The notes: generated by a model not told the origin, from the sequence alone. A stretch of 64,000 nucleotides of DNA from Candidatus Kapaibacterium sp. (GCA_028376765.1 JAONBD010000001.1:17715-81714), one strand, 5' to 3'. Positions 44,935-64,000 are shown, numbered from the stretch's first letter. Program-made: numbers and translations.

Positions 44935-47900
44935 TTATTCATGCTCCATGATAATTATTGGGATTCTTGTAATTGAATTATCATTCTGTACTTCAATAAA
45001 ATATAATCCTGATGGGAAATCTAAATTAAGTTTATAAGTTCCTTTAAAATCAATATCATAATTTGCGATAGTTAATCCAGCAGAATTATATAATCTTTTA
45101 ATTTTATTTGTTCTATTAAGCTTACCATTAACCATAACAAAATTTGTTGCTGGTTGCGGGTAAACTTGTATATTATTAGCGCTTAGTTCTTCTTTCTCTA
45201 TTAGACTTGAAATAATATTATCTTCATCAACATCTTCAATTTCAAAATCATTAGTAATTTTAAATGCTCTAAAAATTAAATTATTTGATGGTTCAGAAAA
45301 TATTTCACCATTGATTGGGTCGAAAGTATTTCCTTGATTCATAATTTCGTTTGATAATAGGAAGAAAGTATTATTATTTATAATATCTAGGTCATAATGC
45401 CAAGTCTTTGTTGGTTCTTCACTAAAATACTCATTAGAGTTTAAGTGGGTTAGTTCAATTGGATCGTTAATATCTACACTTAGTATATCATTTTCACCTA
45501 AATGTGAATCATCTAAAATGTTGGTTTTATGTTCTTCGAACATCACAACAGCTAATGAATCTGAAACTGTAACCCTAATATCTCTTGGGTAGGAATCTTC
45601 CAATTTATGTACTAAAGAGTTAGATTCCCATATTCTTTGAGATTCGTTCCAATGATAAACTAAAATTTGATCGGCATCTTTATCGTTCATGTCATGTACT
45701 GAAACTGCAAGCAAACCCTTTCCATTAAAAATATCAGAGTCAACATCATTTATCATAAAGCTTTCATCTGATTCAAGAAAAATGTTAGGCGAAGACCATG
45801 CACTACCATCCCAGTAAGATGATAGTAATTGTTGTGAATTGCCAAAATCACTTGATGATTTCCAAGTTACTAAGCATTGATCATCGCTTGTCCTTAAAAG
45901 ATTTAAATCAGTTTCAGTCCCTTCAGTTTCATAAATAATTTCTGGATTGGAATGAGTGAAATTTGTTCCATCAAAATCAATAGTAGCATAATAAACGTCT
46001 GATGTCCCAGTTTCAGAATTGGCAACAAACCAAGAAAGCATTGCTTGGTTATCCGATAAAGCAGCAACATAAGGCCTTCCTTCAACTCTTCCTTTATCAA
46101 AAGTTTCAAAATCATCTTCGATAGGGGATATATGTAATAGCTCCTTAGTTCCAAGATCATATACTGCAAACCAAATATCAGTTGTATTAAATAGATATTC
46201 TAAGCTTACATTATCTGGAACATTTGTAGTATTGTGTCTATTTTGCATCCAAGTAACATATACTTTATTGTTATTTATACTTACCTTTGGATTGCTCATA
46301 CCAGAAGAATTTTCTGAAATAACAGTTGAGTTCAAAAATTTATTGGATTCTTTTTCAAAATACGAAATCATTAGCTTGGCAGATTTAGTTTTGATATCTT
46401 GTTCTAGCCAGCAAGCAACTAAATTATCATTATCAGAATCTAATTCTGGTTGTGGCGAGGTAGGGCTATCATAACTAAAGCTAGCTTGCCCGCTTTGCTC
46501 ACCCTCTTGTAATTTGTAACCCTTTGGTTTTGCACCTAAACCGCTTGGCCATCCAACTGGTGTTGGAATAATTGTTGGTATTTGATTATCAGTTAAATGA
46601 AATGTGTGTATCAGTTCAGGACCAAAAATAGTTTTTTTAACAAGTCCCCAACAAAAAGAAGCTGTTGCTTTTGCAAATATCTGATTGCTAACCGAAGAAT
46701 ACTTTCTGTAAGATGGGTAAGGTAAATCATGATTCATTGAAATATTTCCAAATAAAAACCTTATTGTTACAGATACATGAGCGTCTGCCAAACCAGAAAG
46801 TAAATTTGCATCAATTCCTATCGCAAGTCCTAATCCAAGTTGAGAGTAAGCAAAAGATGCAATATCTGTATTGTTTTCATCTGGATTTTCTTGATTGAAA
46901 CTTCCAGCATCTAGTTTGCCAATATTCCCCCAAGAATTAGCATCTGATCTTACATTCAGAAACTGACCCTTAGATAAAGCATAAGCTAAATTTATATCAA
47001 TATTAATCTGAAATAAATCGGCTATTTGTAATCTTCTTTCTTCTTTTAATATTTCTCTAACCTTATTTAAGGTGCCTATTATACCCGGACCTAAAAGATT
47101 ACCCTGAACAGAATATGAATTGAAGTGACTAAAATTAATATTATTTTTATTATCAAGTAAATTTGAATAATTATCAATAGTAAAAACTTTTTCAGATACA
47201 TTCACACCAAAAACATTATCCTGATAGCTAATTGTGGGCTTGTCAAGAATAGATAGTTTTCTAGTCTTAGTGTCATAATTAAGTTTGATTTTTAGCTTAG
47301 AAAATGGCAACGAAATACCTTTACCTCCAAGGACTGGAAGAGCACTAGGGAGGTCGTAAGACCTAATTGCATCAGAATTTAAATAGTAGCTAGCTGGAAT
47401 TGGTTTTACCGCAAATGGGTCAAATATTTTACTATCAGTTGCTGCAATATAGCTAGTAACTTCAGGCTTATCCAAAAAACCTTCTAATTCAAAACTTATA
47501 TTTTCATCATTTATAGTTATGTTGCTATAGCTCATATTAGAATTAAACCAATCAGGTCTTGTTCTGTTTACATTTATTGGGTAGGAAATAGATGTATCAG
47601 GAATCGGATTGTCATCAAAATATGATTCTAAAATTAAATAGGAATGTGGAGATTTTAATTTTGACACATCATATGTAAAAAATGATTGTTTTGTATTTGT
47701 ACTATTTATAGGAATAGTAATTGTATCACCTAGAGCCTGGTTAGCTATATTAACTGCCCTAACAACGAATTTCGAAACAGCATCTTCTTGATTCCCAATC
47801 GAAAACTTTCTTACATCACTCATTGTATTTGGTGCAATTGCTTCAAAAATATTACTAAAATCACCATTCAATTTAGGAGGTATTCCAGGGCGAGCTAAAA

Positions 47901-50900
47901 GTGGAAAGTAGAATGAATAAGGCTGGTTTAAATAAGTAAATTGACATTCAACCCAAGAACCTGCTTTAGCAGAAGCAGTTTTAAAAGGAATTTGTACTTT
48001 GCTGCCAGGTGTGAAACTAGGACTAATTGTTTCCAAAATTTGCTTGTTTGGCTCATTTGGATTCCTATCGTAAATTGTTAGTTTAGTGTTTTCAGCTCCA
48101 TTGAATTGCTCGGAGAAGAATTCTAGCTCAATTTGATCTTCATTTCCTTCAGTGAAGAAACCAAAACCTCCATTTGATTTCATAAACAATGGAATATCAG
48201 TTCCATTGGATTCTACATTTAATATCCAGTTAAATAAAGTGGGTTCAGTTTTATCTGTTTCATAAATGTTGAGACTCATTTCATAATTTCCTTCTGATAA
48301 CCTGCCCATATTTAGGGGTAAAACTAAAGAAGACAAAAAGTTATTCTGATTAAACAAAAAGTTACTTTTAGAGATAAAGCCACTACCATAAAAAATACCA
48401 AAATCACTTAATTCACTTGATAATGATTTATTGTAAAGATTTAAATATAGAAATCCATTTAAGTCTTGCTCATAGTAGTTATCTTCAGAAAATTCTAAAT
48501 ATGATAGTACAGATTCAGAATTAATAATAAAGTCGGAATCATGCATAGTTTTAATAATATCATTATAGTCTAATGCCTTTGACCAGAAACTGAAAGCTGA
48601 AATCTCTCCATCAATTGATAGGCTATTATCAAGGGTTTCATTATAGCCAATATTAATGTTGTATTCTTGAACTTCGCTTAAGTTAATACTTTCATTATCT
48701 AGGGCAAGAGTTTTTACTAATGTACCATTGATAAAGATATTCATAGTTCTTCCACCTTCAACAGTACAAGTAAAATGAGTCCATACATTGTTATTAAATG
48801 ACTGAATGGTTTGGATTGATTCATTATTGACTTGAAAAACAATATTTCCAGCTGAATTTAAATTTACCTGAGCAAATTTAGAATAGTCTTGCTCTTCTTC
48901 GGGGCCATCAATCTGCTGATTAAAGCTAACAAAAGATTGATTTAAATCAGATTTAGTTTTGAACCACCCAGTAAATGAAAAATTACCAAATCCCAAAAAG
49001 TTTGCGGTTTCTGAACCAGATCTTGAATAAATAGAGACACTATCGCCATACAGCTCTAAAGACCTGTTTGTTAGCTCATTAGCTGACGTAAAACTTCTTT
49101 GGGTCAAATCTGAAATATCGTATAAATAAGTAGGATCTAAAAACCATTTACATTGCCCACCATAAGTAAGGTCTAAATTTTCAATGTAATCTAAGCCAGT
49201 TCCTTTAAAATCCCAATAGTGGTTTAGATAAAATGGATTATTATAAATGTTTTCAGATAAATTAAAACTAAATAAATTATTAATTTCTGATTCTCCAAGT
49301 GGAGTTTTTGATACAGCAACTTCACCCAAATTACCTATAAAACTTCTATCGACTGAAATAGGATTAGCTTGGAATTGCCCAGAATTTCCGAAAATCCAAT
49401 ATCCAACAAAATCCTCTGTAACATTTTGGGATGAGCTTCCATTATCGCTTACTAATTCAGCTTCTTTATTTCCATCAACATACAATTGATATTTGGTAGA
49501 TTGAGCTTCACCACCAGTAAAATTGCTTTCGTAAGAAACAACAACATGGTGCCATTCATTATCGTTAAATGTATTTTCTGAACTTATAATAAAAGGATTT
49601 CCGCCATCTTTATTGATATTATAAAAGTTAAGTTTTCCATCTTTTAAATAAATGAATTTGCTTACTTGATCAGGAGAATTTATATCATTGGTAGTTTGGT
49701 AAGAAACTATTGATCCATCTTTCTTTGATGTCTTAAATTTTGCACTAATTGAATAACCAGATATCTCATCATTTTCCGTAAAGTTAATTTTATCAGTATT
49801 TTTAGTGATTGCAAACTGTTGGTCAGCATCTGAAAATTGTAAAATATATCTTTTATAATTTTCAAGGTTAAAGTCAATATCTACTTTATTTGTATTTTCC
49901 GGCATTCCTTCAAATTTAAATATTTCATAAATATTCTGTCCATTTGTATAGCTTATTGTATCTGGAATATTTACTTCATACTTAGCATCAAAAGGTAATA
50001 AGCTTTCTAGTAATGGATATGGTGTTTTCAGCTCTACCGTTATGAGTGTATCAGATAGAAAAACTCCATTTGGGTCAAGAGCTTGGGCGTGAATAAATCT
50101 TGTAAAAGGGTTTATATTTGCAAAGTCAATAATTGTTTCAGCTATAGGGTAACCCCGATCGCTATTTACTTGCAAGATTGTATCTTTTACAATTCTATTA
50201 TTATAGGTAAGTATTTTTAATTCAACAGTTTCACAATTGGAAAATGATGGTTCAATACTAATGGTTACGGGAGTTATTTTCTTCTGATTTGTATCAATTG
50301 GGTTATTTGGTCGCCTATCAAAATTTATGGGATTTAGAGAAATTCTTGGCGAATTAGGTATAACTTCTATTTGATGAAATACCTCAAGTCCATCTGTTGG
50401 ACCACCATCTGCCATTACAATAGCTTCCATTATTGATGTGCCAGTTGGAATAGTATCCATTTGAATTGAAAAAACAGCGTCAGTAATTTCGCTTTGATGA
50501 TATTGAGGAAGAATTGTATCGTTATAAACAGTTCCATCATTTGATGCTAGTGAAATGAATACTTTCCTTGTTCTTGGTGGTAAATCGAAAACTCTGAATC
50601 TATGAGCAAAACGATCTTCAAATTCGGGCCATTGGTCTGATGGGTTATCTACTCTTTCAAAATTATTTGAAAAAAACTCCCAAGTATTCCTTTCAGATCC
50701 AATATACATTTCAGGAGGTTGAATATTTAATGATAATAATTCTTCTTCACCATTTATCAAACCATTTTCTTGGAAGACGGTAATTTTAAGTTGAGAGCCC
50801 AAAACTAATGGTAGGTTCTCTAAATCTAGTACCCACTCAGCATTTGTTAATTCGGTTCCAGTTAATGTTTTTATTGTTTCTTGAGAATTATCAAGTCTGT

Positions 50901-52545
50901 TGCCATGATAATCAACAAGTTCTAAAACTAACTTATTAGTATTATTTGAAATAGAATCAATAGTAATTGTATCTTTTATATTTTTTGTGCCTATCCGGTA
51001 CGGTTGGAAATTTCTCGCCGATGTAACATGAATTTTTAAAGGGTAGATGCTTATAGCTTTCTCGATTTCAAATCCTATTCCAGGATTCTCAGAAGTATTT
51101 GCATTAACAATAATCGATGATTTTAAGCTCAAATCACTAATATTATGGCTATAAGTTTCATCTGAACTTGTATTATCAAAGTATACTGAATCAATTGTTT
51201 CTTGATTAATATAATCATAAGTTTTTATGTTTACATTATCAAAATAATTTGCGTCAGATACAGTATAGTTATTAGTTTTTGTATAAGTAGCCTTAAAAGG
51301 ACCAAAACCATTATCCGAACTTAAAGTGAAATTGTTGTAAAGATCGCCAAGTAATATTTTTTGCTTATGCCTAGCTAATGGAATTGCTGCCTGCAAGGAA
51401 CCATCGTTAGTATTATAATTAGTTATTATTACTTTCTCAATTTCATCATTATCATCTAAAAGGAAAATGGCAAATTTTCTTGGGTTTATAGTATTATTAT
51501 CATCGGTAAAAGTATCTTCAATATCATTTAAGGTTAATGTTATATCAATTGATTGAATATTCTCGGACCAAATAGTCATTGTGTCAATACTTAAATGGTA
51601 TATATTCCCATCATCTACTTTGGTATATCCCCTTGGAGCGTCGGTGGGATTAGTGATCAAAGCAAATGAACTTTTGCTAAAGGCTTGGTCAAGACTAAAA
51701 TATCTAAATCGTTTTTTACTTTTAGGATTACCGTAGGTAAGTAGTTCTAAATAACCATAGTATCTATCTAATTCATTTACTTCAAAACAATCTGAATCAA
51801 TTATTTCGGAATATACTGACTCATAATTAGTAGCTTGACCTTCAAATGTCTCCTTAATTAACCTTGTTCCATAAGGGTCGGGTGGACTGGTAAAAAACAA
51901 ATCATTATCGAACATCGAATACGTTAGATTATTTAAATATAAAACATCTGATTCACTGTAGGTTCCGTGTAAACTAATTGGATATATATTAACTTGATCG
52001 ATTTGCCCTTTGAAACCATGATGATTGCTAGTTCTAATTCCATCAACAATATTTCCCTTTGGCAAATTTCCAAAAATTAGTTTTTGAGGTCTGTTATAAG
52101 AAAACTCAATTATTGTACTTTGTGGATTTGATAAGTTACCAGAAACAAATAGTTTACGAAAATCTTGTGAAATGGATAGATGGTTCCATACTCCAAACTT
52201 TATATTAGATTGTAAAGTTATACTTTTACGCCCTAAATTTTCAATAAAATCGTTCAAAAAATGGAATGTAATGTCACCATTTGGTTCTAATTCAACTCTC
52301 CAAAAATCATCCATTTCAGTTCTGTTAAGTTCATCTAGTGCCCCATTAGTAGGATTTGCACCTACTATATTGCCTGGTTTAAGGGGCTTAAACCAAAAGC
52401 TAATTGTCCAATCTTGCCTATCTAAAAGATCAGTGTCATTAAAAATGACGCTAGAGCTATCAGTTTCTAAGTAAACTGCTGGATTTGCCTGTCCCAATAG
52501 AATTGATCCATTTATTAAAAGCAAAATTGTAATAATTAGTTTCAT
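44935..52545 (-). CDS. Giant (2536 aa) secreted multi-LamG/concanavalin-A-like-domain protein with T9SS C-terminal sorting domain
   Basis: Signal peptide MKLIITILLLINGSILLGQA. There are at least three LamG-like segments (DWTISFWFKP..., WHHVVVSYES...YQLYVDGN..., VWTHFTCTVEGG...IFINGT). The C-terminus IQVYPQPATNFVMVNG...GLYFIEVQ is a T9SS CTD. Confidence 0.8.
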   Translation of the reverse strand: MKLIITILLLINGSILLGQANPAVYLETDSSSVIFNDTDLLDRQDWTISFWFKPLKPGNIVGANPTNGALDELNRTEMDDFWRVELEPNGDITFHFLNDFIENLGRKSITLQSNIKFGVWNHLSISQDFRKLFVSGNLSNPQSTIIEFSYNRPQKLIFGNLPKGNIVDGIRTSNHHGFKGQIDQVNIYPISLHGTYSESDVLYLNNLTYSMFDNDLFFTSPPDPYGTRLIKETFEGQATNYESVYSEIIDSDCFEVNELDRYYGYLELLTYGNPKSKKRFRYFSLDQAFSKSSFALITNPTDAPRGYTKVDDGNIYHLSIDTMTIWSENIQSIDITLTLNDIEDTFTDDNNTINPRKFAIFLLDDNDEIEKVIITNYNTNDGSLQAAIPLARHKQKILLGDLYNNFTLSSDNGFGPFKATYTKTNNYTVSDANYFDNVNIKTYDYINQETIDSVYFDNTSSDETYSHNISDLSLKSSIIVNANTSENPGIGFEIEKAISIYPLKIHVTSARNFQPYRIGTKNIKDTITIDSISNNTNKLVLELVDYHGNRLDNSQETIKTLTGTELTNAEWVLDLENLPLVLGSQLKITVFQENGLINGEEELLSLNIQPPEMYIGSERNTWEFFSNNFERVDNPSDQWPEFEDRFAHRFRVFDLPPRTRKVFISLASNDGTVYNDTILPQYHQSEITDAVFSIQMDTIPTGTSIMEAIVMADGGPTDGLEVFHQIEVIPNSPRISLNPINFDRRPNNPIDTNQKKITPVTISIEPSFSNCETVELKILTYNNRIVKDTILQVNSDRGYPIAETIIDFANINPFTRFIHAQALDPNGVFLSDTLITVELKTPYPLLESLLPFDAKYEVNIPDTISYTNGQNIYEIFKFEGMPENTNKVDIDFNLENYKRYILQFSDADQQFAITKNTDKINFTENDEISGYSISAKFKTSKKDGSIVSYQTTNDINSPDQVSKFIYLKDGKLNFYNINKDGGNPFIISSENTFNDNEWHHVVVSYESNFTGGEAQSTKYQLYVDGNKEAELVSDNGSSSQNVTEDFVGYWIFGNSGQFQANPISVDRSFIGNLGEVAVSKTPLGESEINNLFSFNLSENIYNNPFYLNHYWDFKGTGLDYIENLDLTYGGQCKWFLDPTYLYDISDLTQRSFTSANELTNRSLELYGDSVSIYSRSGSETANFLGFGNFSFTGWFKTKSDLNQSFVSFNQQIDGPEEEQDYSKFAQVNLNSAGNIVFQVNNESIQTIQSFNNNVWTHFTCTVEGGRTMNIFINGTLVKTLALDNESINLSEVQEYNINIGYNETLDNSLSIDGEISAFSFWSKALDYNDIIKTMHDSDFIINSESVLSYLEFSEDNYYEQDLNGFLYLNLYNKSLSSELSDFGIFYGSGFISKSNFLFNQNNFLSSLVLPLNMGRLSEGNYEMSLNIYETDKTEPTLFNWILNVESNGTDIPLFMKSNGGFGFFTEGNEDQIELEFFSEQFNGAENTKLTIYDRNPNEPNKQILETISPSFTPGSKVQIPFKTASAKAGSWVECQFTYLNQPYSFYFPLLARPGIPPKLNGDFSNIFEAIAPNTMSDVRKFSIGNQEDAVSKFVVRAVNIANQALGDTITIPINSTNTKQSFFTYDVSKLKSPHSYLILESYFDDNPIPDTSISYPINVNRTRPDWFNSNMSYSNITINDENISFELEGFLDKPEVTSYIAATDSKIFDPFAVKPIPASYYLNSDAIRSYDLPSALPVLGGKGISLPFSKLKIKLNYDTKTRKLSILDKPTISYQDNVFGVNVSEKVFTIDNYSNLLDNKNNINFSHFNSYSVQGNLLGPGIIGTLNKVREILKEERRLQIADLFQINIDINLAYALSKGQFLNVRSDANSWGNIGKLDAGSFNQENPDENNTDIASFAYSQLGLGLAIGIDANLLSGLADAHVSVTIRFLFGNISMNHDLPYPSYRKYSSVSNQIFAKATASFCWGLVKKTIFGPELIHTFHLTDNQIPTIIPTPVGWPSGLGAKPKGYKLQEGEQSGQASFSYDSPTSPQPELDSDNDNLVACWLEQDIKTKSAKLMISYFEKESNKFLNSTVISENSSGMSNPKVSINNNKVYVTWMQNRHNTTNVPDNVSLEYLFNTTDIWFAVYDLGTKELLHISPIEDDFETFDKGRVEGRPYVAALSDNQAMLSWFVANSETGTSDVYYATIDFDGTNFTHSNPEIIYETEGTETDLNLLRTSDDQCLVTWKSSSDFGNSQQLLSSYWDGSAWSSPNIFLESDESFMINDVDSDIFNGKGLLAVSVHDMNDKDADQILVYHWNESQRIWESNSLVHKLEDSYPRDIRVTVSDSLAVVMFEEHKTNILDDSHLGENDILSVDINDPIELTHLNSNEYFSEEPTKTWHYDLDIINNNTFFLLSNEIMNQGNTFDPINGEIFSEPSNNLIFRAFKITNDFEIEDVDEDNIISSLIEKEELSANNIQVYPQPATNFVMVNGKLNRTNKIKRLYNSAGLTIANYDIDFKGTYKLNLDFPSGLYFIEVQNDNSITRIPIIIMEHE

Positions 52546-53961: not shown

Positions 53962-56900
53962 ATGAATTTAGAACTTATTTTAAATAGAATAGATCTCTTT
54001 GTTGTTGAAATCATATTAAATGATAACAAATTTAATATAATAGACTTGAACAAAACAGCCGAAATGGTCTTTGCTAACCATAGCAAAGAAGAATTTTTAA
54101 GAAATATTGATGGTAAGTTAAAAGAGTGTTTTTACACAAAAAATGAGCTTAATACTGAACTTCAAATTGGAGATTTCTTTTTTAATTTTGAGCTTATTCC
54201 AATTAATGAAATTATACATTGTATTGGGAAAGATGTAACTAATGAGCTTCAATTAAAGCAAAAAATTACTCATGTCTCTTATGACATGGGGGAAAGAATT
54301 AAAGAGCTAAATTTATTAAATCAAGTTTCTGTGATTACTGAAAAGGTAGTAAAAGATTATGAAACAGTTTTTAGTGAAATTGTGAAATTAATCCCTCCAG
54401 CTTGGCAATTTCCTCAAATTACAAGTGCAAGAATAGAATTTTTAGATCAAATTCATGAAAGCGAAAACTTTAAAGAAAGCCAATGGTTATTAACTCAAGA
54501 TTTAGAATACAATGGCTTACCTTTAGGATCAATCGAAATATATTATAAAGAGAAAAAACCTTTAGCTTATAAAGGCCCATTTTTAGAAGAAGAAATCAAT
54601 CTACTTAATACCCTTTGCAGGTATATTGTGAGCTTCTACGAACGAAAATCCAACGCAACAAACATAAGAGATCTAAATAAAAACTTGGAAGAGCTTGTTG
54701 CAAAACAAACAACAGAATTATCAATGCAAACGACAGCATTAAATCAATCTGCAATAGTTTCTCTGGGGGATCGAAAAGGTAATATTATCGAGGTAAATGA
54801 TTATTTCTGTAAAATTTCCAAATTTGATAGAAATGAATTAATTGGAAAAAATCACAACATAATCAATAGCGGGTTTCACTCTAGAGAATTTTGGTTGGAC
54901 TTCTGGAATACTATTAAAAGAGGAAAAACTTGGAAGGGCCGAGTAAAAAACAAGGCAAAAGATGGTAGCTATTACTGGACTGAAACAGTAGTCGTACCTC
55001 AATTAAATGACAAAGGTTACCCCCACAAATTTCTTTCTATCCGCCTAGATATTACTGAACAAATTAAGGTTCAAGAGAATATTAAGAAACTTTCTGTTGC
55101 AATGGATCAAAATCCTGCTGCGGTTTTTATCACTAATACAAAAGGCGAAATTGAATATATCAACCCACAATTTACTGCAATAACAGGCTATTCTATTGAA
55201 GAAGCAGATGGGAAAACACCAAGTCTATTGTCATCAGGGTTAACACCACCAAAAGTTTATTCCAATCTTTGGAAGACTATTCAATCTGGCAAAATATGGA
55301 GAGGTGAGCTTCAAAATAAACATAAAGATGGAACAATATTTTGGGCAAGTATATCAATCTCAAATGTAAAAAATGAAAAAGGGGAAGTAACTCACTTTAT
55401 TGCAATTGAAGAAGACATATCTGAGCGAAAAGAGCAAGAAAAAATTATTAAAGAAAGCGAAGAAAGATTCAGCTCAATGTTGTCAAATGTTCCAGGTGTA
55501 ATATTTAGATGTAAGCTAGATAAAGATTGGACAATGTTATTCATGAGTGATAAAGTTAATGAATTGATTGGCTACCCTAAGGAAGCATACTTAAAAGGAA
55601 AGCTTACATTTAATGATACAATTCATCCTGATGATAGAGAATTTGTTGCAGATCAAATTGAAACACAGCTGAAGAATAATAATTCGTACACAATTGAATA
55701 CCGGATCATAACAGCTTTAGGCGATGTTAAATGGATTAGCGAGCAAGGAACAGTATCCTCTGAAAATAATAAAGAGAAATTGCTCGATGGCGCAATGTTC
55801 GATATCACTGGAAGGAAAGAAGCAGAGCAGGGAAAGGAGCAGGATAAACAAATGATCGAGCTTGCAGTTCAAAGCGGTGGACTTGCTATTTGGGAATGGA
55901 ATTTGGAAGATGATGAGCTAAGTGCAAATGACACTTGGTACAAAATGTTCGATATAAAAAAGGATAACAAGAATAAGGTTGATGAGTATGATTCTAGAAT
56001 ACATCACGATGATGTTGAAATCGTTGAAAAAACATTTTTAGATCACATCACTGGCAAATCAAATAAATATGAACTTGAATTCAGGTACTTGTCTAGAGAT
56101 ATGCAGAGCTACAAATGGATTTCTGGAATTGGTAAAATAGTAAAGTGGAATGAAGATGGGTCTCCATTAATTTTCATGGGTATAAATCAAGATATATCAA
56201 GACGGAAAGAGCAAGAGAATGAAATACTAAAAAGTAAAGAGAGATTTAAAATCGCTACAGAAAGTGCTGGTCTTGCAACTTGGGAGTGGTTTGTTAAGGA
56301 AGATAAAACTGTTGCTTCAGAAAAGTATCTTGATGTATTTGGATTTGATCCCGCAATAGTAAAAGTATCTGATGAATGGGCAAAGAGATTACATCCTGAT
56401 GATTCGGAAGCAACATTCCAAGCACTGACCGATCATCTAGAAGGTAAAACGGAGTCATATTACTCTGAATTCAGATATAGACATCCTAAGTATGAGCAGT
56501 ATATTTGGCTAAGTGGAGCAGGTAAAGTTGTTGAGAAATATGATGATGGATCACCTAAAATTTTAATGGGAATTAATGAGGATATAACGGAGAGAAAAGA
56601 AGCTGAAGAAAAACTTAAGGTTTCAGAAGAACAGCTCAATTACGCACTTGAAGCTACTGGAGAAGGCGTTTGGGATTGGTTTATTCCAGAAGAAAAGGTG
56701 AAACATAATATTACATGGTGTGATATTCTCCAAGTTGATTATGATAAAGTGGAACATGGAATGGATTTCTTCGCTCAATTAATTTATGAGGAAGATCGCG
56801 AAGAAGTGATGGCGAAAGTCAATGATTGTTTGGAAGGGAAAGCCGATTATAAGTCTACTCACAGAATGATAAATCCTGATGGAAGGATAATATGGGTTGA

Positions 56901-59900
56901 TGACAAAGGAATTGTAGTTCAAAGGGGAAATAAGGGTGAGCCATTGCGAATGGTAGGATCCATAACTGATATAACAGATAGAATAGAAAATGAAAAAGCA
57001 ATTACTTTTGAAAAGAATAAAGCTCAACTTCTAAAAGATATTGCTCTTGAAGCTTATAATTCAGATCTTATAGATGGAATTATAACTCTTTCATTAACAT
57101 ATGTAGCAAAATTTAAAAACTGGCCAGTAGGCCATGCCTATATTTTGAATAATGATAAAACAATTCTAAAACCTTCTGGTTTATGGTATTCAAATAGCAA
57201 ATACAATTCTGAAAATTTTATTGAAATAACAAACAATACAGATTTCAAAATTGGTACAGGTTTACCAGGAAGAGTATGGAAAACTAAAAAAGCTGCTTGG
57301 ATAGAAAATGTACTCTTAGATAATAATTTTCCTAGAAATAAAGCTGCAAAAGAACTGGGAGTAAAAGGAGGTTTTGCTTTCCCAATTATAATTGATAACC
57401 AAGTTTTTGGTGTTCTGGAATTTTTCTCAAAAGAAGAAGAAAAACCAGATGATGATTTACTAGATTTAGTAGAACAAATTGGGATACAACTAGGTTTTGC
57501 TATTGATAAAAAAATCTCAGAAGAGGAAATAATAAAAGCAGGCCTAACCAGTAAAACAGCACTTGATTTAAGTAAATCTGGTGCTTGGGAAGTTGAAGTT
57601 GCTGGTGTTGAAATGCAAGACATGAAATTTAAGGTTACAGATGAACTGATAACTCTACTTGGTGTTAAAAGTTTTAAAAATGGTTACGTGAATATCTCTG
57701 ATTATATGAGAGTAATTCAAGAAGTTAGCCCTGAAGATGCAAAATTAGTTATGGAAAATATGGCTAATACACTTCAAGGAGAGTCTAATGATTATGATAT
57801 AACTCATAAATATAAAAAAGAAACAAATGATGAAATAGTTTGGATCCGGAATAAGGGAACGGTAATAAGAGATGAAAATGGTTATCCAGTTAGAATGATG
57901 GGTGTAGCTCAGGATATTACGGATATAAAAAATGCTGAAGAAGAATTAAAAAGAAATAATATACTAGTAGAAAATGCTCTTGATTTATCAAAATCTGCTT
58001 TTTGGTATACTGATTTAAATAATCCAGAATATTATGTTTCCTCTGACAAATTAGAAGAAATATTTGGAGAAGAACATAAACCTGATTACAAATACTACCT
58101 CGAAGAAGATTGGCTAAAAAGAATTTCAGAGATAAGCCCTGAATTAGCAGATGCTGCTGGTGTTAACTATAACGAAGCAATAGAAGGCAAAAGACCTAGA
58201 TACGATGTGATATATCCTTATAAGCGTCCTAAAGATGGTAAAGTTATTTGGGCTCATGCAATAGGCGAGGTAGTAAGAGATGACAATGGAAAACCCATAG
58301 AAGTCTTAGGAGTTGTCCAAGATATTACAGATGAAAAACAAAAAGAAGAAGAATTAATTGAAAACAGGGCTTTGATGCAGTCCCTTTATGATTCTATACC
58401 TGATCTGATTTTTGCAAAAAATACCAGTGGAAATTACGTACAAGCAAATACGGCATTTAAGAAGTTCATAGGTATGGAAAATAATGATGTAATAGGCAAA
58501 ACTGATTATGATTTATTCCCTAAAGATACGGCTGATTTTTTCAGAGAGAATGACAAAAAAATGTTGGACCAAGGCTTTAAGAGAAATAACGAGGAATGGG
58601 TAGATTATCCTGATGGGAGCAAGGTCTTACTTGATACTTTAAAAACACCATTTTTTGATTTAAATGGCACATTATTAGGTTTGTTAGGTATAAGCCGAGA
58701 TATTACCGAACGAAACAAAGCTCAAGAAAAGCTTGAAAAAGCAATTCAAGCAGCTGACGCTGCTAATTCAGCAAAATCTCAATTCCTTGCTAATATGAGC
58801 CATGAGATCAGAACTCCAATGAATGCAATTATTGGATTAACTCATCTAGCTTTGAAGACAGACTTGGATAAAAAACAACACGATTATTTATCAAAAGTTG
58901 AAAAATCTGCTAAATCTCTTCTAGGGATTATAAATGACATTCTTGATTTTTCTAAGATAGAAGCTGGTAAATTATCAGTTGAACATATCGAGTTTGATAT
59001 TGAACAGGTAATCGATACAGTTTCTAACCTAATAACATTCAAAGCTCAGCAAAAAGGTCTTGAACTTGTATTTGGTATTGATCACGAAATCCCAGTAAAT
59101 CTAGTTGGTGACCCTTTGCGATTAGGTCAGATTATTACTAATCTTTGTTCAAATTCTGTGAAATTTACTGATAATGGAGAAATCTTTGTTTATGTTAAAA
59201 GAGTAATGGATAGCTCTAAAGAAATTAAACTTGAATTCTCTGTGAAAGATACTGGTATTGGAATGACACAAGACCAAGTAAATAAACTTTTCCAATCATT
59301 CACCCAAGCTGATAGCTCTACTACTAGAAAGTATGGTGGAACTGGACTTGGACTTACTATATCTAAAAGTTTAGTAGAGATGATGAATGGAGATATATGG
59401 ATTGAATCTGAACCTGATGTTGGTACGACTTTCTATTTCACTGCTGTTTTTGATAGATCTAATAACGAAAGAGATAGAACATTTACTCCAAGTGTAGATT
59501 TAAGAGGTATGAAGGTTCTTATTTGTGATGATAATTCAACTTCATTAAAAGTTCTGCAAGAAGCATTAGAATCTTTTTCTTTTGAAGTTCATACTGTTAG
59601 TTCGGGTAGCGAAGCAATAGGTGAATTGCAGAGGTCTAAAGACCAACCTTATGAACTAGTGCTGATGGATTGGAATATGCCTGAAATGGATGGTATTGAA
59701 ACTTCAGATATAATTAAGCATGATGCATTAATTCCTCAAATACCAGTTGTAATTATGGTTACAGCCTATGATAGAGAAGAATTAATTAGTCAGGCCAATA
59801 AAGTAGGTATAGATGCTTTCCTTGTGAAGCCAGTTAACTACTCCTTACTATTTGATACAATAATGGAATTGTTTGGTAAGGGCAATACTAAGAGATCTAG

Positions 59901-60972
59901 AAAACATAAAGACGGAACAAAACATGAATTTGCTCTAAATGAAATAAAAGGTGCAAATATATTGTTGGTAGAAGATAATGAAATCAACCAACAAGTCGCA
60001 ACTGAACTTTTTGAAAGTTCTGGTTTTAATGTTGATGTTGCAGATAATGGGCAAATTGCTGTTGATAAGGTTAAAGAAAATGGTCCAGAAGCTTATGATA
60101 TAGTATTAATGGATCTTCAAATGCCAGTTATGGATGGTTATACTTCTACTAAAACAATTAGGCAGGATTATACATCAGAACAAATTAAAATTGTTGCTAT
60201 GACAGCAGATGCTATGGTCGGTATCAAGGAAAAGTGTATTGATGTTGGAATGCAAGATTTTGTTACTAAACCAATTGATCCTGATGAAGTTTTTGGTGCA
60301 TTGGTAAAGTGGATCAAGCCAAGAGAAGGAATGGTTCAAAATGTTAAAAAATCAGATGCGAAATCTGATATTACTATCCCTGATCTTAATTCAATTAATA
60401 CTGAATCTGGACTAAAGCGATTGGCTGATAACAAAAAATTATACTTATCATTATTAAGTAAATTTTTAAAAAAGAATGAGGACTTCATATCCGACTTAAT
60501 TACTGATTTTGATAAAAATGACAGAGAAGCTTCTGTTAGAAAAGCCCATACATTAAAAGGCGTTTCAGGAAATATTGGTGCTGAAAAAGTGTTTAATCAT
60601 TCTAAAACAATGGAAGATAAATTAAACGAAGATTCTTTTATTCCAGTTAGTGGTAATACTTTTGAGCTGAAAAATGCAATTGATGAGGTAATTAAAGAAC
60701 TGAAAGAAAAATTAGTAGAAAATAGCAATTCCGAATCAAACGATGATAAAAAATTGGATAAAGCAGAGCTATCTAAATTATTTAATATCCTTTTGGATTT
60801 ACTTAGTGAAGATGATTTTGATTCATCAAACACCTTAGATGAAATACTAGATCTTGATGGGTTAGGCACATTACGATTGAAATTTGAATCTATAAAAGAC
60901 TCAGTTTCCGGTTACGACTTTGAAGAAGCTTTAGAAAAAGCAGAAGAATTGAAAAAGGATGTTGATGTATAA
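53962..60972 (+). CDS. Giant cytoplasmic multi-sensor unorthodox hybrid histidine kinase (roughly 10 PAS/PAC plus a GAF domain, then HisKA, HATPase_c, two REC domains, C-terminal HPt)
   Basis: No signal or TM segment. There are repeated PAC-like motifs (...KDGS/T..W......). The GAF region is near 57.2-57.5 kb. The H-box ANMSHEIRTPMNAIIGL is near 58.8 kb, with G1/G2 boxes (DTGIGM, GGTGLGL). REC Asp contexts are LVLMDWNMPEMDG and IVLMDLQMPVMDG. The HPt motif is KAHTLKGVSGNIGA. Confidence 0.85.
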   Translation: MNLELILNRIDLFVVEIILNDNKFNIIDLNKTAEMVFANHSKEEFLRNIDGKLKECFYTKNELNTELQIGDFFFNFELIPINEIIHCIGKDVTNELQLKQKITHVSYDMGERIKELNLLNQVSVITEKVVKDYETVFSEIVKLIPPAWQFPQITSARIEFLDQIHESENFKESQWLLTQDLEYNGLPLGSIEIYYKEKKPLAYKGPFLEEEINLLNTLCRYIVSFYERKSNATNIRDLNKNLEELVAKQTTELSMQTTALNQSAIVSLGDRKGNIIEVNDYFCKISKFDRNELIGKNHNIINSGFHSREFWLDFWNTIKRGKTWKGRVKNKAKDGSYYWTETVVVPQLNDKGYPHKFLSIRLDITEQIKVQENIKKLSVAMDQNPAAVFITNTKGEIEYINPQFTAITGYSIEEADGKTPSLLSSGLTPPKVYSNLWKTIQSGKIWRGELQNKHKDGTIFWASISISNVKNEKGEVTHFIAIEEDISERKEQEKIIKESEERFSSMLSNVPGVIFRCKLDKDWTMLFMSDKVNELIGYPKEAYLKGKLTFNDTIHPDDREFVADQIETQLKNNNSYTIEYRIITALGDVKWISEQGTVSSENNKEKLLDGAMFDITGRKEAEQGKEQDKQMIELAVQSGGLAIWEWNLEDDELSANDTWYKMFDIKKDNKNKVDEYDSRIHHDDVEIVEKTFLDHITGKSNKYELEFRYLSRDMQSYKWISGIGKIVKWNEDGSPLIFMGINQDISRRKEQENEILKSKERFKIATESAGLATWEWFVKEDKTVASEKYLDVFGFDPAIVKVSDEWAKRLHPDDSEATFQALTDHLEGKTESYYSEFRYRHPKYEQYIWLSGAGKVVEKYDDGSPKILMGINEDITERKEAEEKLKVSEEQLNYALEATGEGVWDWFIPEEKVKHNITWCDILQVDYDKVEHGMDFFAQLIYEEDREEVMAKVNDCLEGKADYKSTHRMINPDGRIIWVDDKGIVVQRGNKGEPLRMVGSITDITDRIENEKAITFEKNKAQLLKDIALEAYNSDLIDGIITLSLTYVAKFKNWPVGHAYILNNDKTILKPSGLWYSNSKYNSENFIEITNNTDFKIGTGLPGRVWKTKKAAWIENVLLDNNFPRNKAAKELGVKGGFAFPIIIDNQVFGVLEFFSKEEEKPDDDLLDLVEQIGIQLGFAIDKKISEEEIIKAGLTSKTALDLSKSGAWEVEVAGVEMQDMKFKVTDELITLLGVKSFKNGYVNISDYMRVIQEVSPEDAKLVMENMANTLQGESNDYDITHKYKKETNDEIVWIRNKGTVIRDENGYPVRMMGVAQDITDIKNAEEELKRNNILVENALDLSKSAFWYTDLNNPEYYVSSDKLEEIFGEEHKPDYKYYLEEDWLKRISEISPELADAAGVNYNEAIEGKRPRYDVIYPYKRPKDGKVIWAHAIGEVVRDDNGKPIEVLGVVQDITDEKQKEEELIENRALMQSLYDSIPDLIFAKNTSGNYVQANTAFKKFIGMENNDVIGKTDYDLFPKDTADFFRENDKKMLDQGFKRNNEEWVDYPDGSKVLLDTLKTPFFDLNGTLLGLLGISRDITERNKAQEKLEKAIQAADAANSAKSQFLANMSHEIRTPMNAIIGLTHLALKTDLDKKQHDYLSKVEKSAKSLLGIINDILDFSKIEAGKLSVEHIEFDIEQVIDTVSNLITFKAQQKGLELVFGIDHEIPVNLVGDPLRLGQIITNLCSNSVKFTDNGEIFVYVKRVMDSSKEIKLEFSVKDTGIGMTQDQVNKLFQSFTQADSSTTRKYGGTGLGLTISKSLVEMMNGDIWIESEPDVGTTFYFTAVFDRSNNERDRTFTPSVDLRGMKVLICDDNSTSLKVLQEALESFSFEVHTVSSGSEAIGELQRSKDQPYELVLMDWNMPEMDGIETSDIIKHDALIPQIPVVIMVTAYDREELISQANKVGIDAFLVKPVNYSLLFDTIMELFGKGNTKRSRKHKDGTKHEFALNEIKGANILLVEDNEINQQVATELFESSGFNVDVADNGQIAVDKVKENGPEAYDIVLMDLQMPVMDGYTSTKTIRQDYTSEQIKIVAMTADAMVGIKEKCIDVGMQDFVTKPIDPDEVFGALVKWIKPREGMVQNVKKSDAKSDITIPDLNSINTESGLKRLADNKKLYLSLLSKFLKKNEDFISDLITDFDKNDREASVRKAHTLKGVSGNIGAEKVFNHSKTMEDKLNEDSFIPVSGNTFELKNAIDEVIKELKEKLVENSNSESNDDKKLDKAELSKLFNILLDLLSEDDFDSSNTLDEILDLDGLGTLRLKFESIKDSVSGYDFEEALEKAEELKKDVDV

Positions 60973-62140
60973 TAGCAGAATATTAATTGTTGATGATACC
61001 CCAGAGAATATAGATGTATTAGGTAATATTCTTAAGGATTACAAGAAAAGTGTTGCCTTGAATGGCAAAAAAGCAATTAAAATTGCAAACGAAAAATCAC
61101 CAGACCTTATTTTACTTGATATTATGATGCCTGGTATGGATGGTTTTGAAGTTTGTAAAATCCTAAAGGTAAATCCAAAAACAAAAGATATTCCTATAAT
61201 TTTTATTACAGCAAAAAATCAAGTTGAAGATGAAACTAAAGGACTTGAACTTGGAGCAGTTGACTTTATTTCTAAACCAATCTCACCACCATCTGTTTTG
61301 GCAAGGGTAAAAACACACCTTGAGTTAAGTAGGTCTAGAAACGAATTAACAACAAAAAACTCTAAATTACAAGAATTAAACAACCATATTTTAGAGTCGC
61401 TATCCTACGCTAAATTAATTCAAAAATCAGTTCTGCCCTGGGAATCCCAAATAGATAAATTATTTAAAGATTATTTTATTCTTTTTAAACCACAGGATAT
61501 TGTATCAGGGGATTATTATTGGATGCAACAAAATGATAAATATTCTTGGTTAGCAGTATGTGATTGTACAGGGCATGGAGTTCCAGGGGCTATGTTATCA
61601 ATGATAGGTTCAAAGATTATGGATGATTGTATATTGAGTGAACAGATTTATGATTGTGATTTAATTTTAGAAAAATTTGATAAAAAGTTTTCCGATTCCC
61701 TTAATAAAAGTGAAAATGCAAATTATTTGAGAGACACAATTGATGTTTGTTTAATCAGAGTTGATAAAAAATCGAAGCTAATTCAGTTTTCAGGTGCAAA
61801 ACGACCACTACTTTTTATTAAAGATTCAGAATTACACGAAGTAAAAGGATCTAGAAAAGCTATTGGAGATTATTTTAAGAATACAAATTCTTTTGAGAGT
61901 CATGAACTTGATGTATCAGAAGTTAGCTATTTGTATTTAACTAGTGATGGTTTTCCAGATCAAAATGATCAGTTTGGAAAAAAACTTGGTTCCAAAAAAT
62001 TTAAAGAGCTTTTATTGAGCCACCACAACAAAAAAAGTTTAGAACAGAAGAATACTTTGTTGGGAGAACTTCATAATTTCCAAAAACAAGAATCTCAGAG
62101 AGATGATATAACGATAATCGGATGGAACCCAAATGAATGA
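60959..62140 (+). CDS. Response regulator with PP2C-type (SpoIIE/RsbU-like) Ser/Thr phosphatase output domain
   Basis: N-terminal REC (LILLDIMMPGMDGFEV). C-terminal PP2C motifs SGDYYW...DCTGHGV...DGF...DDITIIG. The start overlaps the kinase stop by 14 bp. Confidence 0.8.
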   Translation: MLMYNSRILIVDDTPENIDVLGNILKDYKKSVALNGKKAIKIANEKSPDLILLDIMMPGMDGFEVCKILKVNPKTKDIPIIFITAKNQVEDETKGLELGAVDFISKPISPPSVLARVKTHLELSRSRNELTTKNSKLQELNNHILESLSYAKLIQKSVLPWESQIDKLFKDYFILFKPQDIVSGDYYWMQQNDKYSWLAVCDCTGHGVPGAMLSMIGSKIMDDCILSEQIYDCDLILEKFDKKFSDSLNKSENANYLRDTIDVCLIRVDKKSKLIQFSGAKRPLLFIKDSELHEVKGSRKAIGDYFKNTNSFESHELDVSEVSYLYLTSDGFPDQNDQFGKKLGSKKFKELLLSHHNKKSLEQKNTLLGELHNFQKQESQRDDITIIGWNPNE

Positions 62141-62497
62141 AATAAATAAAATACTCATTGTTGATGATACTCCCGAAAACATTGATGTTCTTGGTGAAAT
62201 TCTAAAAGATCATAAAAAGTTTGTTGCCCTTAATGGAGAAAAAGCTCTAAAAATTGCTGAAAACAAATTACCAGATTTAATTTTACTTGATATTATGATG
62301 CCTGGTATGGATGGTTTTGAAGTTTGCTCCAAGCTTAAAGAAAATACGATAACTAAAAATATACCAGTTATTTTTATTACAGCAAAAAACCAGATCGAAG
62401 ATGAAACAAGGGGTTTAGAGCTAGGTGCAGTGGATTTCATTTCAAAACCAATTAGCCCTCCTATAGTATTGGCAAGAATAAAAAATCATCTTGAATT
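60977..62497 (+). repeat. Tandem paralogous REC-domain coding segments (60977-61320 and 62154-62497), about 80% aa / 75-80% nt identical, including an identical 44-bp stretch
   Basis: MLMYNSRILIVDDTPENIDVLGNILKDYKK... versus MNEINKILIVDDTPENIDVLGEILKDHKK.... TTACTTGATATTATGATGCCTGGTATGGATGGTTTTGAAGTTTG is identical in both. Confidence 0.8.
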
Positions 62498-63536
62498 AAT
62501 AAGTTCCAGAAATATATTGGAAATTAATAATAAAGAACTCGAATCTACACTGGTAGAGCTTAAACAAACTCAGTCTCAATTAATTCAAAATGAAAAAATG
62601 GCAGCTCTAGGTCAGCTTGTTGCAGGGGTTGCACATGAGATAAATACTCCACTAGGTGCTATTAAGTCTTCAAATTCTAATCAAATTGTGAACGTAGAAT
62701 TTATAGTAAATACTCTTCCTAAAGTTTTATCTCAACTGAACCAAGACCAACTTGATGCCTATCAAAATTTATTAAAATCAGGGTCAAAATCCCAACAGGT
62801 TTTGAGCTCACGAGAAGAGAGACAGCTAAAAAAATCACTTAAGCTTCAGCTTAAAGAAAACTCTTTTAACGAATCGTTTGCAGAAAATTTAGCTAATGCT
62901 GGAATCTATGAGATTGATAGTGATACAAAACAAATTTTATCCCTTAATTCAGAAGAAATAATTAAATCTTTATCAAAGATTAATGGGCTAAAAACATCAG
63001 CTGAAATTATTAAATTAGCTTTAGATAAAGTTAGCAAAATTGTATTTGCTTTGAAAAATTTCTCTCGACATGATTTTTCTGAGACAAAAGCTTACGCTAA
63101 TTTGTCAAGTGGGCTGGATTCTGTATTAATTATATATAATAATCAGATAAAGCAAGGGGTTGAAATTGTAAAAGATTATTCCTTTACCTCACAAATTATG
63201 TGCTATGAAGACCAACTTAATCAAGTTTGGACTAATATTATACATAATGCACTACAGGCTATGAAAAATAGCGGAACCATAGAAATAAAAACAATACTAG
63301 AAGGTGATATGGTTAAAGTCTCTATTTCTGATAATGGGCCTGGTATCCCAGAAGATATACAGAAAAAGATTTTTGATCCCTTTTTCACAACTAAAGAAGC
63401 TGGCGAAGGTACTGGAATTGGACTTGATATTGCAACAAAAATTATTGCAAAGCACGAAGGAAGAATTACATTTGAGTCCCAAATTGGTAAGGGAACAACA
63501 TTTTACATTTATCTACCGGCATTAACAAATGAATAA
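62133..63536 (+). CDS. Hybrid response-regulator/histidine kinase (REC + HisKA + HATPase_c)
   Basis: REC domain, then the H-box LVAGVAHEINTPLGAI and ATPase motifs (DNGPGI, GTGIGL). Overlaps the upstream stop by 8 bp. Confidence 0.8.
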   Translation: MNEINKILIVDDTPENIDVLGEILKDHKKFVALNGEKALKIAENKLPDLILLDIMMPGMDGFEVCSKLKENTITKNIPVIFITAKNQIEDETRGLELGAVDFISKPISPPIVLARIKNHLELISSRNILEINNKELESTLVELKQTQSQLIQNEKMAALGQLVAGVAHEINTPLGAIKSSNSNQIVNVEFIVNTLPKVLSQLNQDQLDAYQNLLKSGSKSQQVLSSREERQLKKSLKLQLKENSFNESFAENLANAGIYEIDSDTKQILSLNSEEIIKSLSKINGLKTSAEIIKLALDKVSKIVFALKNFSRHDFSETKAYANLSSGLDSVLIIYNNQIKQGVEIVKDYSFTSQIMCYEDQLNQVWTNIIHNALQAMKNSGTIEIKTILEGDMVKVSISDNGPGIPEDIQKKIFDPFFTTKEAGEGTGIGLDIATKIIAKHEGRITFESQIGKGTTFYIYLPALTNE

Positions 63537-64000
63537 ACCCCTAATAATATGTGTTGATGATGAAAAAATTATTCTGGATAGTTTAAAGCTTGAATTGAGT
63601 AGTACTTTTAGAGATTTAGTTGAAATTGAAGTTGCTGAATCTGCCGATGAAGCTCTTGAAATAATTGAAGAAGAAACAGAAAATGGTAGAGAAATCCCAA
63701 TTATTATTTCGGATTATGTTATGCCAGGTATGAAAGGCGACGAATTTCTAATAAACTGTTCTAAAACTCTTCCCAAGACAAAAAGAATTTTACTAACTGG
63801 ACAGGCAACAGCCGAAGGTGTTGGTAATGCGGTTATAAATGCTGGTTTGTATCGCTTTATTTCCAAACCTTGGGAAAAAGAGGATTTAGAACTAACTATC
63901 TCTGAAGCTTTTAGAAGTTTTTACAAAGATAAAAAAATTGCTCTTCAAGAATCAAAGCTAGAAGAACTAAATAGAATTTTGCAGGTAAAAATAGCCGAAC
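63529..64000 (+). CDS. Response regulator (REC domain followed by a coiled-coil); 3'-partial, runs off window end
   Basis: ATG at 63529 overlapping the upstream stop (ATGAATAA). REC motifs CVDDE...ISDYVMPGMKG...K. Open to position 64000. Confidence 0.7.
   Translation, partial: MNKPLIICVDDEKIILDSLKLELSSTFRDLVEIEVAESADEALEIIEEETENGREIPIIISDYVMPGMKGDEFLINCSKTLPKTKRILLTGQATAEGVGNAVINAGLYRFISKPWEKEDLELTISEAFRSFYKDKKIALQESKLEELNRILQVKIAE

Follow-up and report, generated by a model that had tools for sequence, protein, structure and literature searches.

The window analysed here is a 64,000-nucleotide (nt) stretch (64 kb, G+C content 31%) of Candidatus Kapaibacterium sp. (GCA_028376765.1, JAONBD010000001.1:17715-81714), which ends in a tightly packed series of signalling genes on the plus strand (Table 1). 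A giant hybrid sensor histidine kinase is followed by g1, in which a receiver (REC) domain, termed here A-type, precedes a SpoIIE/PP2C phosphatase domain, by g2, in which a second A-type REC precedes a histidine kinase (HK) core, and by g3, which begins with a B-type REC. The present analysis concerns the age of the two A-type receivers, the reason for their strong resemblance and the signalling pathway in which they may take part.

Gene order and domain content of the locus

According to Pfam, the hybrid kinase contains eight PAS_3 domains, followed by PAS_9, GAF_2, HisKA, HATPase_c, two Response_reg domains and a C-terminal histidine phosphotransfer (HPt) domain; a tblastn search with this HPt revealed no second copy in the 64-kb window. 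In the case of g1, the open reading frame (ORF) opens at 60959, the start given by NCBI lies at 60965 and the stop at 62140; its 391-amino-acid (aa) product matches a Candidatus Kapabacteria protein of NCBI at 100%, and g2 likewise has a 100% NCBI match. The two A-type RECs score 100.4 and 97.3 bits against PF00072 (cutoff 30.2), with E-values of 8.3e-29 in g1 and 7.7e-28 in g2. The receivers are fused to different outputs, just as the preliminary description of this DNA had claimed: g1 carries SpoIIE (PF07228; 7.5e-16, 59.1 bits against a cutoff of 25) and g2 carries HATPase_c (7.2e-28, 97.7 bits) together with HisKA, which stays under the cutoff (2.8e-4, 21.3 bits against 26.9) but has an H-box that is invariant in the family alignment (H168).

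Adjacent genes overlap by 8 nt throughout the locus. The kinase stop and the g1 start share positions 60965-60972 (ATGTATAA), the g1 stop and the g2 start positions 62133-62140 (ATGAATGA), and the g2 stop and the g3 start positions 63529-63536 (ATGAATAA). At all three junctions a gene's ATG lies ahead of the stop codon of the gene before it, in the form ATGnnTAA or ATGAATGA. The hybrid kinase, g1, g2 and g3 are therefore one translationally coupled four-gene operon.

Table 1. Features of the locus and of related loci. Positions are those of the window unless a contig is named.
Feature	Position	Strand	Description and basis
Hybrid sensor histidine kinase	53962..60972	+	2336 aa, giant; presumed phosphodonor; ORF and Pfam
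Internal RECs of the hybrid kinase	about 59512-59862 and 59959-60303	+	two domains
HPt domain of the hybrid kinase	60451..60690	+	Pfam PF01627, aa 2164-2243, E 1.3e-9
g1	60965..62140	+	A-type REC and SpoIIE/PP2C phosphatase (SiaA-like)
A-type REC of g1	60977..61330	+	ungapped alignment to the g2 REC
47-nt run, copy 1	61109..61155	+	in the g1 REC; encodes ILLDIMMPGMDGFEV(C) around the phospho-acceptor Asp
g2	62133..63536	+	A-type REC and histidine kinase; H-box AHEINTPLGAI, HATPase_c
A-type REC of g2	62148..62501	+	ungapped alignment to the g1 REC
47-nt run, copy 2	62280..62326	+	in the g2 REC
g3	63529..64000	+	B-type REC (KPW type), truncated by the window end; Pfam Response_reg
Related cassette	L004 785-8090
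Related cassette	L005 1983-8654		L005/L006
Related cassette	L089 3592-10675
Related cassette	L090 72-9999
Related cassette	L091 58-9135
Locus with g3-like receivers	L037 11035-13178
Locus with g3-like receivers	L064 11071-12653
Locus with g3-like receivers	L050 11057-13639
Loci with g3-like receivers	L068 6035-7360 and 19432-21012

Similarity, age and conservation of the A-type receivers

Aligned without gaps, the g1 and g2 RECs share 81% aa identity over 118 residues and 80% over 120, the latter in agreement with the earlier estimate for the first ~120 residues of the two consecutive genes; at the nt level the identity is 74.6%. The other RECs of the window (two in the hybrid kinase, one in g3 and two elsewhere) are only 29-34% identical to this pair. 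The similarity is therefore real and far over the generic REC level, and an explanation by the generic Pfam REC consensus was rejected. The functional quintet (acidic pair, phospho-Asp, Thr/Ser, Phe/Tyr and Lys, as defined in PMC9981736) is kept in both receivers as DD, D, T, F and K. Beyond the REC, a weaker likeness continues for ~14 residues into the linker (61331-61372, SRNELTTKNSKLQ; 62502-62543, SRNILEINNKELE), and the shared module may extend into the beginning of the helical linker ahead of the output domain.

At the synonymous level the two RECs have diverged to saturation. Identity at the three codon positions is 80%, 87% and 49%, and the Nei-Gojobori method gives a proportion of synonymous differences (pS) of 0.69, a synonymous distance (dS) of about 1.9, a nonsynonymous distance (dN) of 0.15 and dN/dS of about 0.08. 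Outside a 47-nt run that is identical in both genes, the same codon occurs at 38 of the 82 identical residues, compared with 39.8 expected by chance under independent draws from the codon usage of the window, and no residual synonymous similarity between the two RECs is detectable there.

The comparison with an orthologous locus, which had been proposed for dating the duplication, points in the same direction. A relative, represented by another organism's overlapping Logan contigs (L003 and L007/L008), has the same gene order, namely an HPt-bearing kinase, a REC-PP2C gene (P0002), a REC-HK gene (P0122) and a g3-like REC, and 8-nt overlaps are found at its PP2C/kinase and kinase/g3 junctions too. 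Between the window and the relative, the PP2C output domains are 51.5% and the kinase output domains 56.8% identical. Meanwhile all six pairings of the four RECs fall within narrow ranges of 80-86% aa, 75-77% nt and 47-54% third-position identity, with about 52% same-codon usage; the REC paralogs are 81% and 85% identical within the two genomes, and the between-genome comparisons give 80.5-85.6%. Since the relative holds the same tandem and the paralogs are no closer to each other than cross-genome pairs, the tandem predates the split of the two organisms. The six comparisons show no sign of whole-domain concerted evolution.

The level of conservation seen in this pair extends to the wider families. 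Compared with the RECs of 72 REC-PP2C homologs, most of them of the Ignavibacteria type, the g1 REC shows a mean identity of 73.6% (range 66.7-80.5), and the PP2C domains of these homologs show a mean of only 38%; with the RECs of the closest REC-HK homologs, the g1 REC shares a mean of 70% (maximum 83%). For the g2 REC and the RECs of the REC-PP2C homologs the mean is 73% and the maximum 86%. Consensus RECs derived for the two families are about 87% identical, with differences at about 14 of 114 positions. Among the 94 columns that are identical in g1 and g2, the residue is the majority one in both families at 73 and in one family at 16, and at five it is found in 20-50% of sequences; none carries a residue rare in both families, contrary to the previous statement that the identity includes non-conserved positions. 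Hence the similarity does exceed the generic consensus, as had been maintained, yet it is fully covered by the consensus of the subfamily. The notion that the likeness is peculiar to this pair was rejected, as it is subfamily-wide.

The closest solved structure of the A-type REC is the first receiver of PleD (E about 5e-25), and PleD is its closest NCBIfam family as well. A homolog search with the REC alone yielded only short or fragmentary proteins, from which the attached output domains cannot be listed; the consensus of 120 of these, with source names from several phyla, is 75% identical to g1 and 71% to g2, and some (57-76% identity) carry the JGI names RpfG-family or PleD-family. In addition, four chains of ~202-209 aa (P0263, P0307, P0318 and P0335) unite an A-type REC (63-65% identical to that of g1) with an HPt, and three of them are named RpfG-family regulators by JGI. 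In cyanobacterial and proteobacterial REC-HK homologs, the identity goes down to about 50% in the REC and is about 46% in the kinase core. Since the REC falls so far in these more distant homologs, its extreme conservation is a trait of the Kapabacteria/Ignavibacteria group, where the subtype is attached to at least two outputs, a SiaA-like PP2C and a histidine kinase.

The g1 and g2 RECs are thus probably ancient paralogs of an unusually slow-evolving receiver subtype (PleD/RpfG-like) within a branched phosphorelay operon. Judging from the divergence data, the 81% identity would reflect strong purifying selection on the whole REC subtype and not recent copying. The preliminary description had instead proposed a recent duplication or gene conversion, and the 81% identity, the identical run and the adjacency of the genes would all suit a recent duplication or a recent full-length homogenisation of the RECs. 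However, with dS saturated, codon sharing outside the run at the chance level, every shared residue common in the wider families, and the tandem shared with a relative in which the output domains are no more than 52-57% identical and the paralogs resemble each other no more closely than they do the window genes, such an origin appears extremely improbable. A recent split, if true, would have offered a snapshot of a pathway dividing by domain duplication before the insulation of the copies. An old split with both copies nearly unchanged is what one would expect of two receivers that have to go on docking one kind of donor.

Output genes and the candidate phosphorelay

The PP2C domain of g1 is closest to that of SiaA (PDB 6k4e, 1.2e-40; NCBIfam SiaA, 6.5e-57), and its metal-binding motifs GDYY, DCTGHG, SDG and RDDIT align with the 6k4e structure. 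SiaA belongs to SiaABCD, a threonine-phosphorylation switch of Pseudomonas aeruginosa with SiaA-type PP2C signalling (PMC7647112, PMC8457831). The resemblance includes the gene neighbourhood, in that REC-PP2C homologs elsewhere precede DUF6272 and SiaC (PF09345) genes or have DUF6272 fused N-terminally. Unlike g1, however, SiaA has a membrane/HAMP N-terminus in place of a receiver; against the SiaA equivalog NF038263, g1 reaches 193.5 bits with a cutoff of 700, the PP2C part alone being matched, and no SiaB-like, SiaC-like or SiaD-like gene is present in the window. A second point of comparison is HptB-HsbR-HsbA of P. aeruginosa, where an HPt feeds a REC-PP2C partner-switch regulator (PMC6482189, PMC5085249). 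Both arrangements join an HPt, the proposed donor in the present case, to a response regulator with a PP2C output. HsbR differs in having an extra C-terminal kinase domain and a substrate, HsbA, encoded next to it, whereas g1 contains Response_reg and SpoIIE only and ends six residues after the PP2C match, its PP2C being of the SiaA and not of the HsbR kind. As the defining features of both types are absent, g1 is neither a SiaA equivalog nor a regulator of the HsbR type.

Many of the REC-PP2C homologs are PF19788-REC-SpoIIE fusions of about 567 aa. In two contigs (L001 10001-16130 and L002 2993-9155), the REC-PP2C gene is followed by genes for DUF6272, SiaC/PF09345, a conserved ~82-85-aa protein and a triple-AAA+ protein, and the DUF6272 motif GGGIGxIE resembles a GHKL kinase. 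To judge by their domains, such gene sets appear to encode a SiaABC-like partner switch under the control of a REC. The window contains none of these partner genes.

The product of g2 belongs to a large family of REC-HK homologs of about 470 aa. Over its REC part, g3 matches the NCBIfam model of the NosR-family REC c-di-GMP phosphodiesterase (1.1e-31), and this REC is 56-70% identical to the RECs of the REC-HD_5 genes that come after REC-HK in L004, L090 and L091; g3 is probably a REC-HD-GYP phosphodiesterase of cyclic di-GMP (c-di-GMP). Five related loci share a cassette, conserved in genomes of the Kapabacteria/Ignavibacteria type, in which a large hybrid kinase carrying REC and HPt precedes an A-type REC-HK (about 470 aa), after which come B-type REC-HD_5 and/or B-type REC-HK genes. 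Only in the window and in the Logan relative do the first two of these genes flank a REC-PP2C gene. The REC-HD-GYP genes found after an HPt-bearing hybrid kinase in the related cassettes are comparable to RpfC/RpfG; unlike in that system, the HD-GYP-type gene here probably bears a B-type receiver, and the A-type receivers are on the PP2C and the kinase. In two of the cassettes (L005 1983-6011 and L089 3592-7995), Fer4 and Fe_hyd_lg_C ([FeFe]-hydrogenase large-subunit) domains precede the PAS-HisKA-HATPase-REC-HPt part of the hybrid kinase, an arrangement suggestive of a phosphorelay kinase with a fused hydrogenase-like sensor.

Contigs were also scanned with an alignment of the kinase family; the matches listed are mostly cyanobacterial and deltaproteobacterial and include neither the source organism nor its close relatives. 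Among these matches are dozens of loci, belonging to several phyla, in which one or two g3-type (KPW) REC genes come after a g2-type kinase core, whether or not that core bears an A-type REC. The outputs of the g3-type RECs vary, comprising a cyclase, a kinase and a PP2C, the last of these occurring in L050 and resembling the PP2C of g1. As g3-type RECs trail the kinase core across phyla, g3 is likely to be the cognate regulator of the g2 core. Receivers like that of g3 (LTGQA...YRFIxKPW) usually come as a single-domain REC and a REC with an output, in cyanobacteria, Bacteroidota and other phyla; in the set of L037, L064, L050 and L068 the outputs include adenylate/guanylate cyclase. A degenerate DNA pattern spanning the junction of the PP2C end and the REC start found no match in metagenome contigs.

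From the domain content and the gene order we infer a relay with two branches. The giant PAS/GAF hybrid kinase would autophosphorylate and transfer the phosphate along a His-Asp-His path to its C-terminal HPt, which would most likely phosphorylate both A-type RECs. In one branch, the g1 REC would switch the PP2C phosphatase acting on a phospho-Ser/Thr partner-switch protein, a partner that is not encoded in the window; in the other, the g2 REC would switch the g2 kinase, which would phosphorylate the B-type receiver of g3, probably a REC-HD-GYP protein. The locus has the genomic marks of a branched HPt phosphorelay, that is, an HPt and two intact RECs with matching contact residues in one operon, and the upstream HPt is a plausible phosphodonor for both g1 and g2. 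The contact positions were read from Spo0F; as the automatic alignment of g1 with Spo0F shifted a gap in alpha1, the register of g2 was used for both RECs. In response regulators, specificity is determined mainly by helix alpha1 (PMC2991266). In this helix a single residue differs between g1 and g2 (N/E at the equivalent of Spo0F-21). No difference occurs in the beta3-alpha3 and beta5-alpha5 loops, and one V/I change is seen where alpha4 begins; alpha2, alpha3 and the alpha3-beta4 loop contain most of the other differences, and alpha5 a few. The claim of identical recognition surfaces is thus borne out for the contact loops and has to be corrected for the one alpha1 residue and the alpha4 change.

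A different wiring has also been considered, in which the HPt does not serve the two RECs in parallel: the g2 core would phosphorylate the g1 REC or its own REC, g1 would be cognate to g2, and the g2 REC would serve as a phosphate sink or in feedback. Adjacent, overlapping kinase and regulator genes are usually cognate, as known for two-component systems in general (PMC2991266), and the same alpha1 surface on both RECs would allow the partner of one to dock the other. This wiring is nevertheless very unlikely in view of the position of the kinase core ahead of g3-type RECs described above, the five related loci in which an A-type REC-HK directly follows the hybrid kinase with HPt and no PP2C gene is present, and the occurrence of REC-PP2C homologs without any g2-like kinase.

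With the HPt as the common donor, the locus is composed of known parts in an already known one-input, two-output design. In Caulobacter, CckA-ChpT-CtrA/CpdR comprises a hybrid kinase, an HPt-type transferase and two terminal receivers with different outputs (PMC9981736), the same layout as deduced here from the genes alone. It differs from the present locus in that the HPt is fused to the kinase here, the receivers are 81% identical paralogs of one subtype, and the outputs are a PP2C and a second kinase in place of a transcription factor and a proteolysis adaptor. The SiaA-like phosphatase branch and the kinase branch, the latter probably continuing to HD-GYP, may both bear on c-di-GMP or biofilm-type decisions, and the locus is a reasonable, unexceptional candidate for the study of branched HPt phosphorelays in an uncultured Kapabacteria lineage.

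The identical run, the receiver phylogeny and partner choice

Several observations weigh against ancient paralogs in a branched relay. As regards ancestry, an identical run of at least 47 nt arises with P of about 1e-4 when both proteins are held fixed and the codons are redrawn from the window usage (20000 simulations), and purifying selection at the protein level alone is insufficient to explain it; furthermore, in a neighbour-joining tree of 130 RECs (200 bootstraps), the group formed by the four RECs of the window and the relative has a bootstrap of 15%, with inner pairings of at most 37%, which leaves some room for an older, lineage-specific replacement. As regards the relay, SiaB/DUF6272 and SiaC, the usual neighbours of homologous REC-PP2C genes, were not found by tblastn in the 64-kb window, and the assignment of the HPt to both A-type RECs draws on adjacency and analogy. 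The A-type surface is common to homologs in many genomes and therefore does not single out this HPt as the donor, and among related loci the HPt is 38-60% identical where the REC is 73-87% identical.

The identical run exists as the preliminary description had reported, although its length is 47 nt and not 44. Within it, 15 of 16 codons are the same, compared with 9.3 expected (P 7e-4), and synonymous differences flank it on both sides. These bounds, the codon sharing and the simulated probability would fit a short tract of about 47 nt, covering the phospho-acceptor loop, that was recently converted between g1 and g2, the paralogs themselves being ancient. However, the PP2C gene of the relative has 45 of the 48 nt of this stretch in common with both window genes, and it shares 13 of 16 codons with g1 (P 0.03) and 14 of 16 with g2 (P 0.006); codon sharing of the relative's kinase gene in the stretch is at the chance level. 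Since a run-like stretch is thus also present in the PP2C gene of another genome, conversion inside the window genome alone is inadequate. It must also be borne in mind that the run was chosen after the fact, that the peptide is invariant with three Met codons, and that the codons are mostly the favoured T/A-ending ones in two genomes of 31% GC. Recent conversion of the tract therefore seems unlikely. The run may stem from conversion over a short tract or from an effect at the level of codons, and in both cases it says nothing on the age of the REC domains.

In the neighbour-joining tree, the four RECs cluster among kinase-type RECs, apart from the main REC-PP2C clade. Such a placement would be expected if, in the ancestor that the window organism shared with the relative, the REC of the inserted PP2C gene had been replaced by, or derived from, that of the neighbouring kinase, which would make the duplication an old one all the same. 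The P0002 REC, being 86% identical to the g2 REC and only 80.5% to that of its ortholog g1, and the restriction of the PP2C gene within the cassette to the window and the relative point the same way. In contrast, profile log-likelihood ratios put g1 (+28 bits) and P0002 (+26) on the REC-PP2C side, with g2 (+7.6) and P0122 (+0.9) within the kinase range; the four-sequence group has the low bootstrap given above, and 114 columns at about 80% identity throughout carry too weak a signal to decide. An old replacement is accordingly regarded as quite unlikely, and simple ancient paralogy fits the data at least as well.

A broader proposal is that, in Kapabacteria/Ignavibacteria, the A-type REC is a near-invariant universal socket, mounted on varied outputs and fed by many HPts in a many-to-many network without insulation. 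The convergence of so many HPts would keep the REC almost constant, and short conversion tracts such as the 47-nt run would help to preserve an identical phospho-acceptor loop in the paralogs. The difference between the identities of the REC across genomes and those of the HPt would be in line with such a network, the existence of which seems rather doubtful.

Upstream of the operon, on the opposite strand, lies a 2536-aa ORF with Laminin_G/concanavalin-like lectin domains (window 44935-52545, minus strand), adjoined by a sulfatase (43513-44811); the lectin-domain ORF is unrelated to the REC pair.

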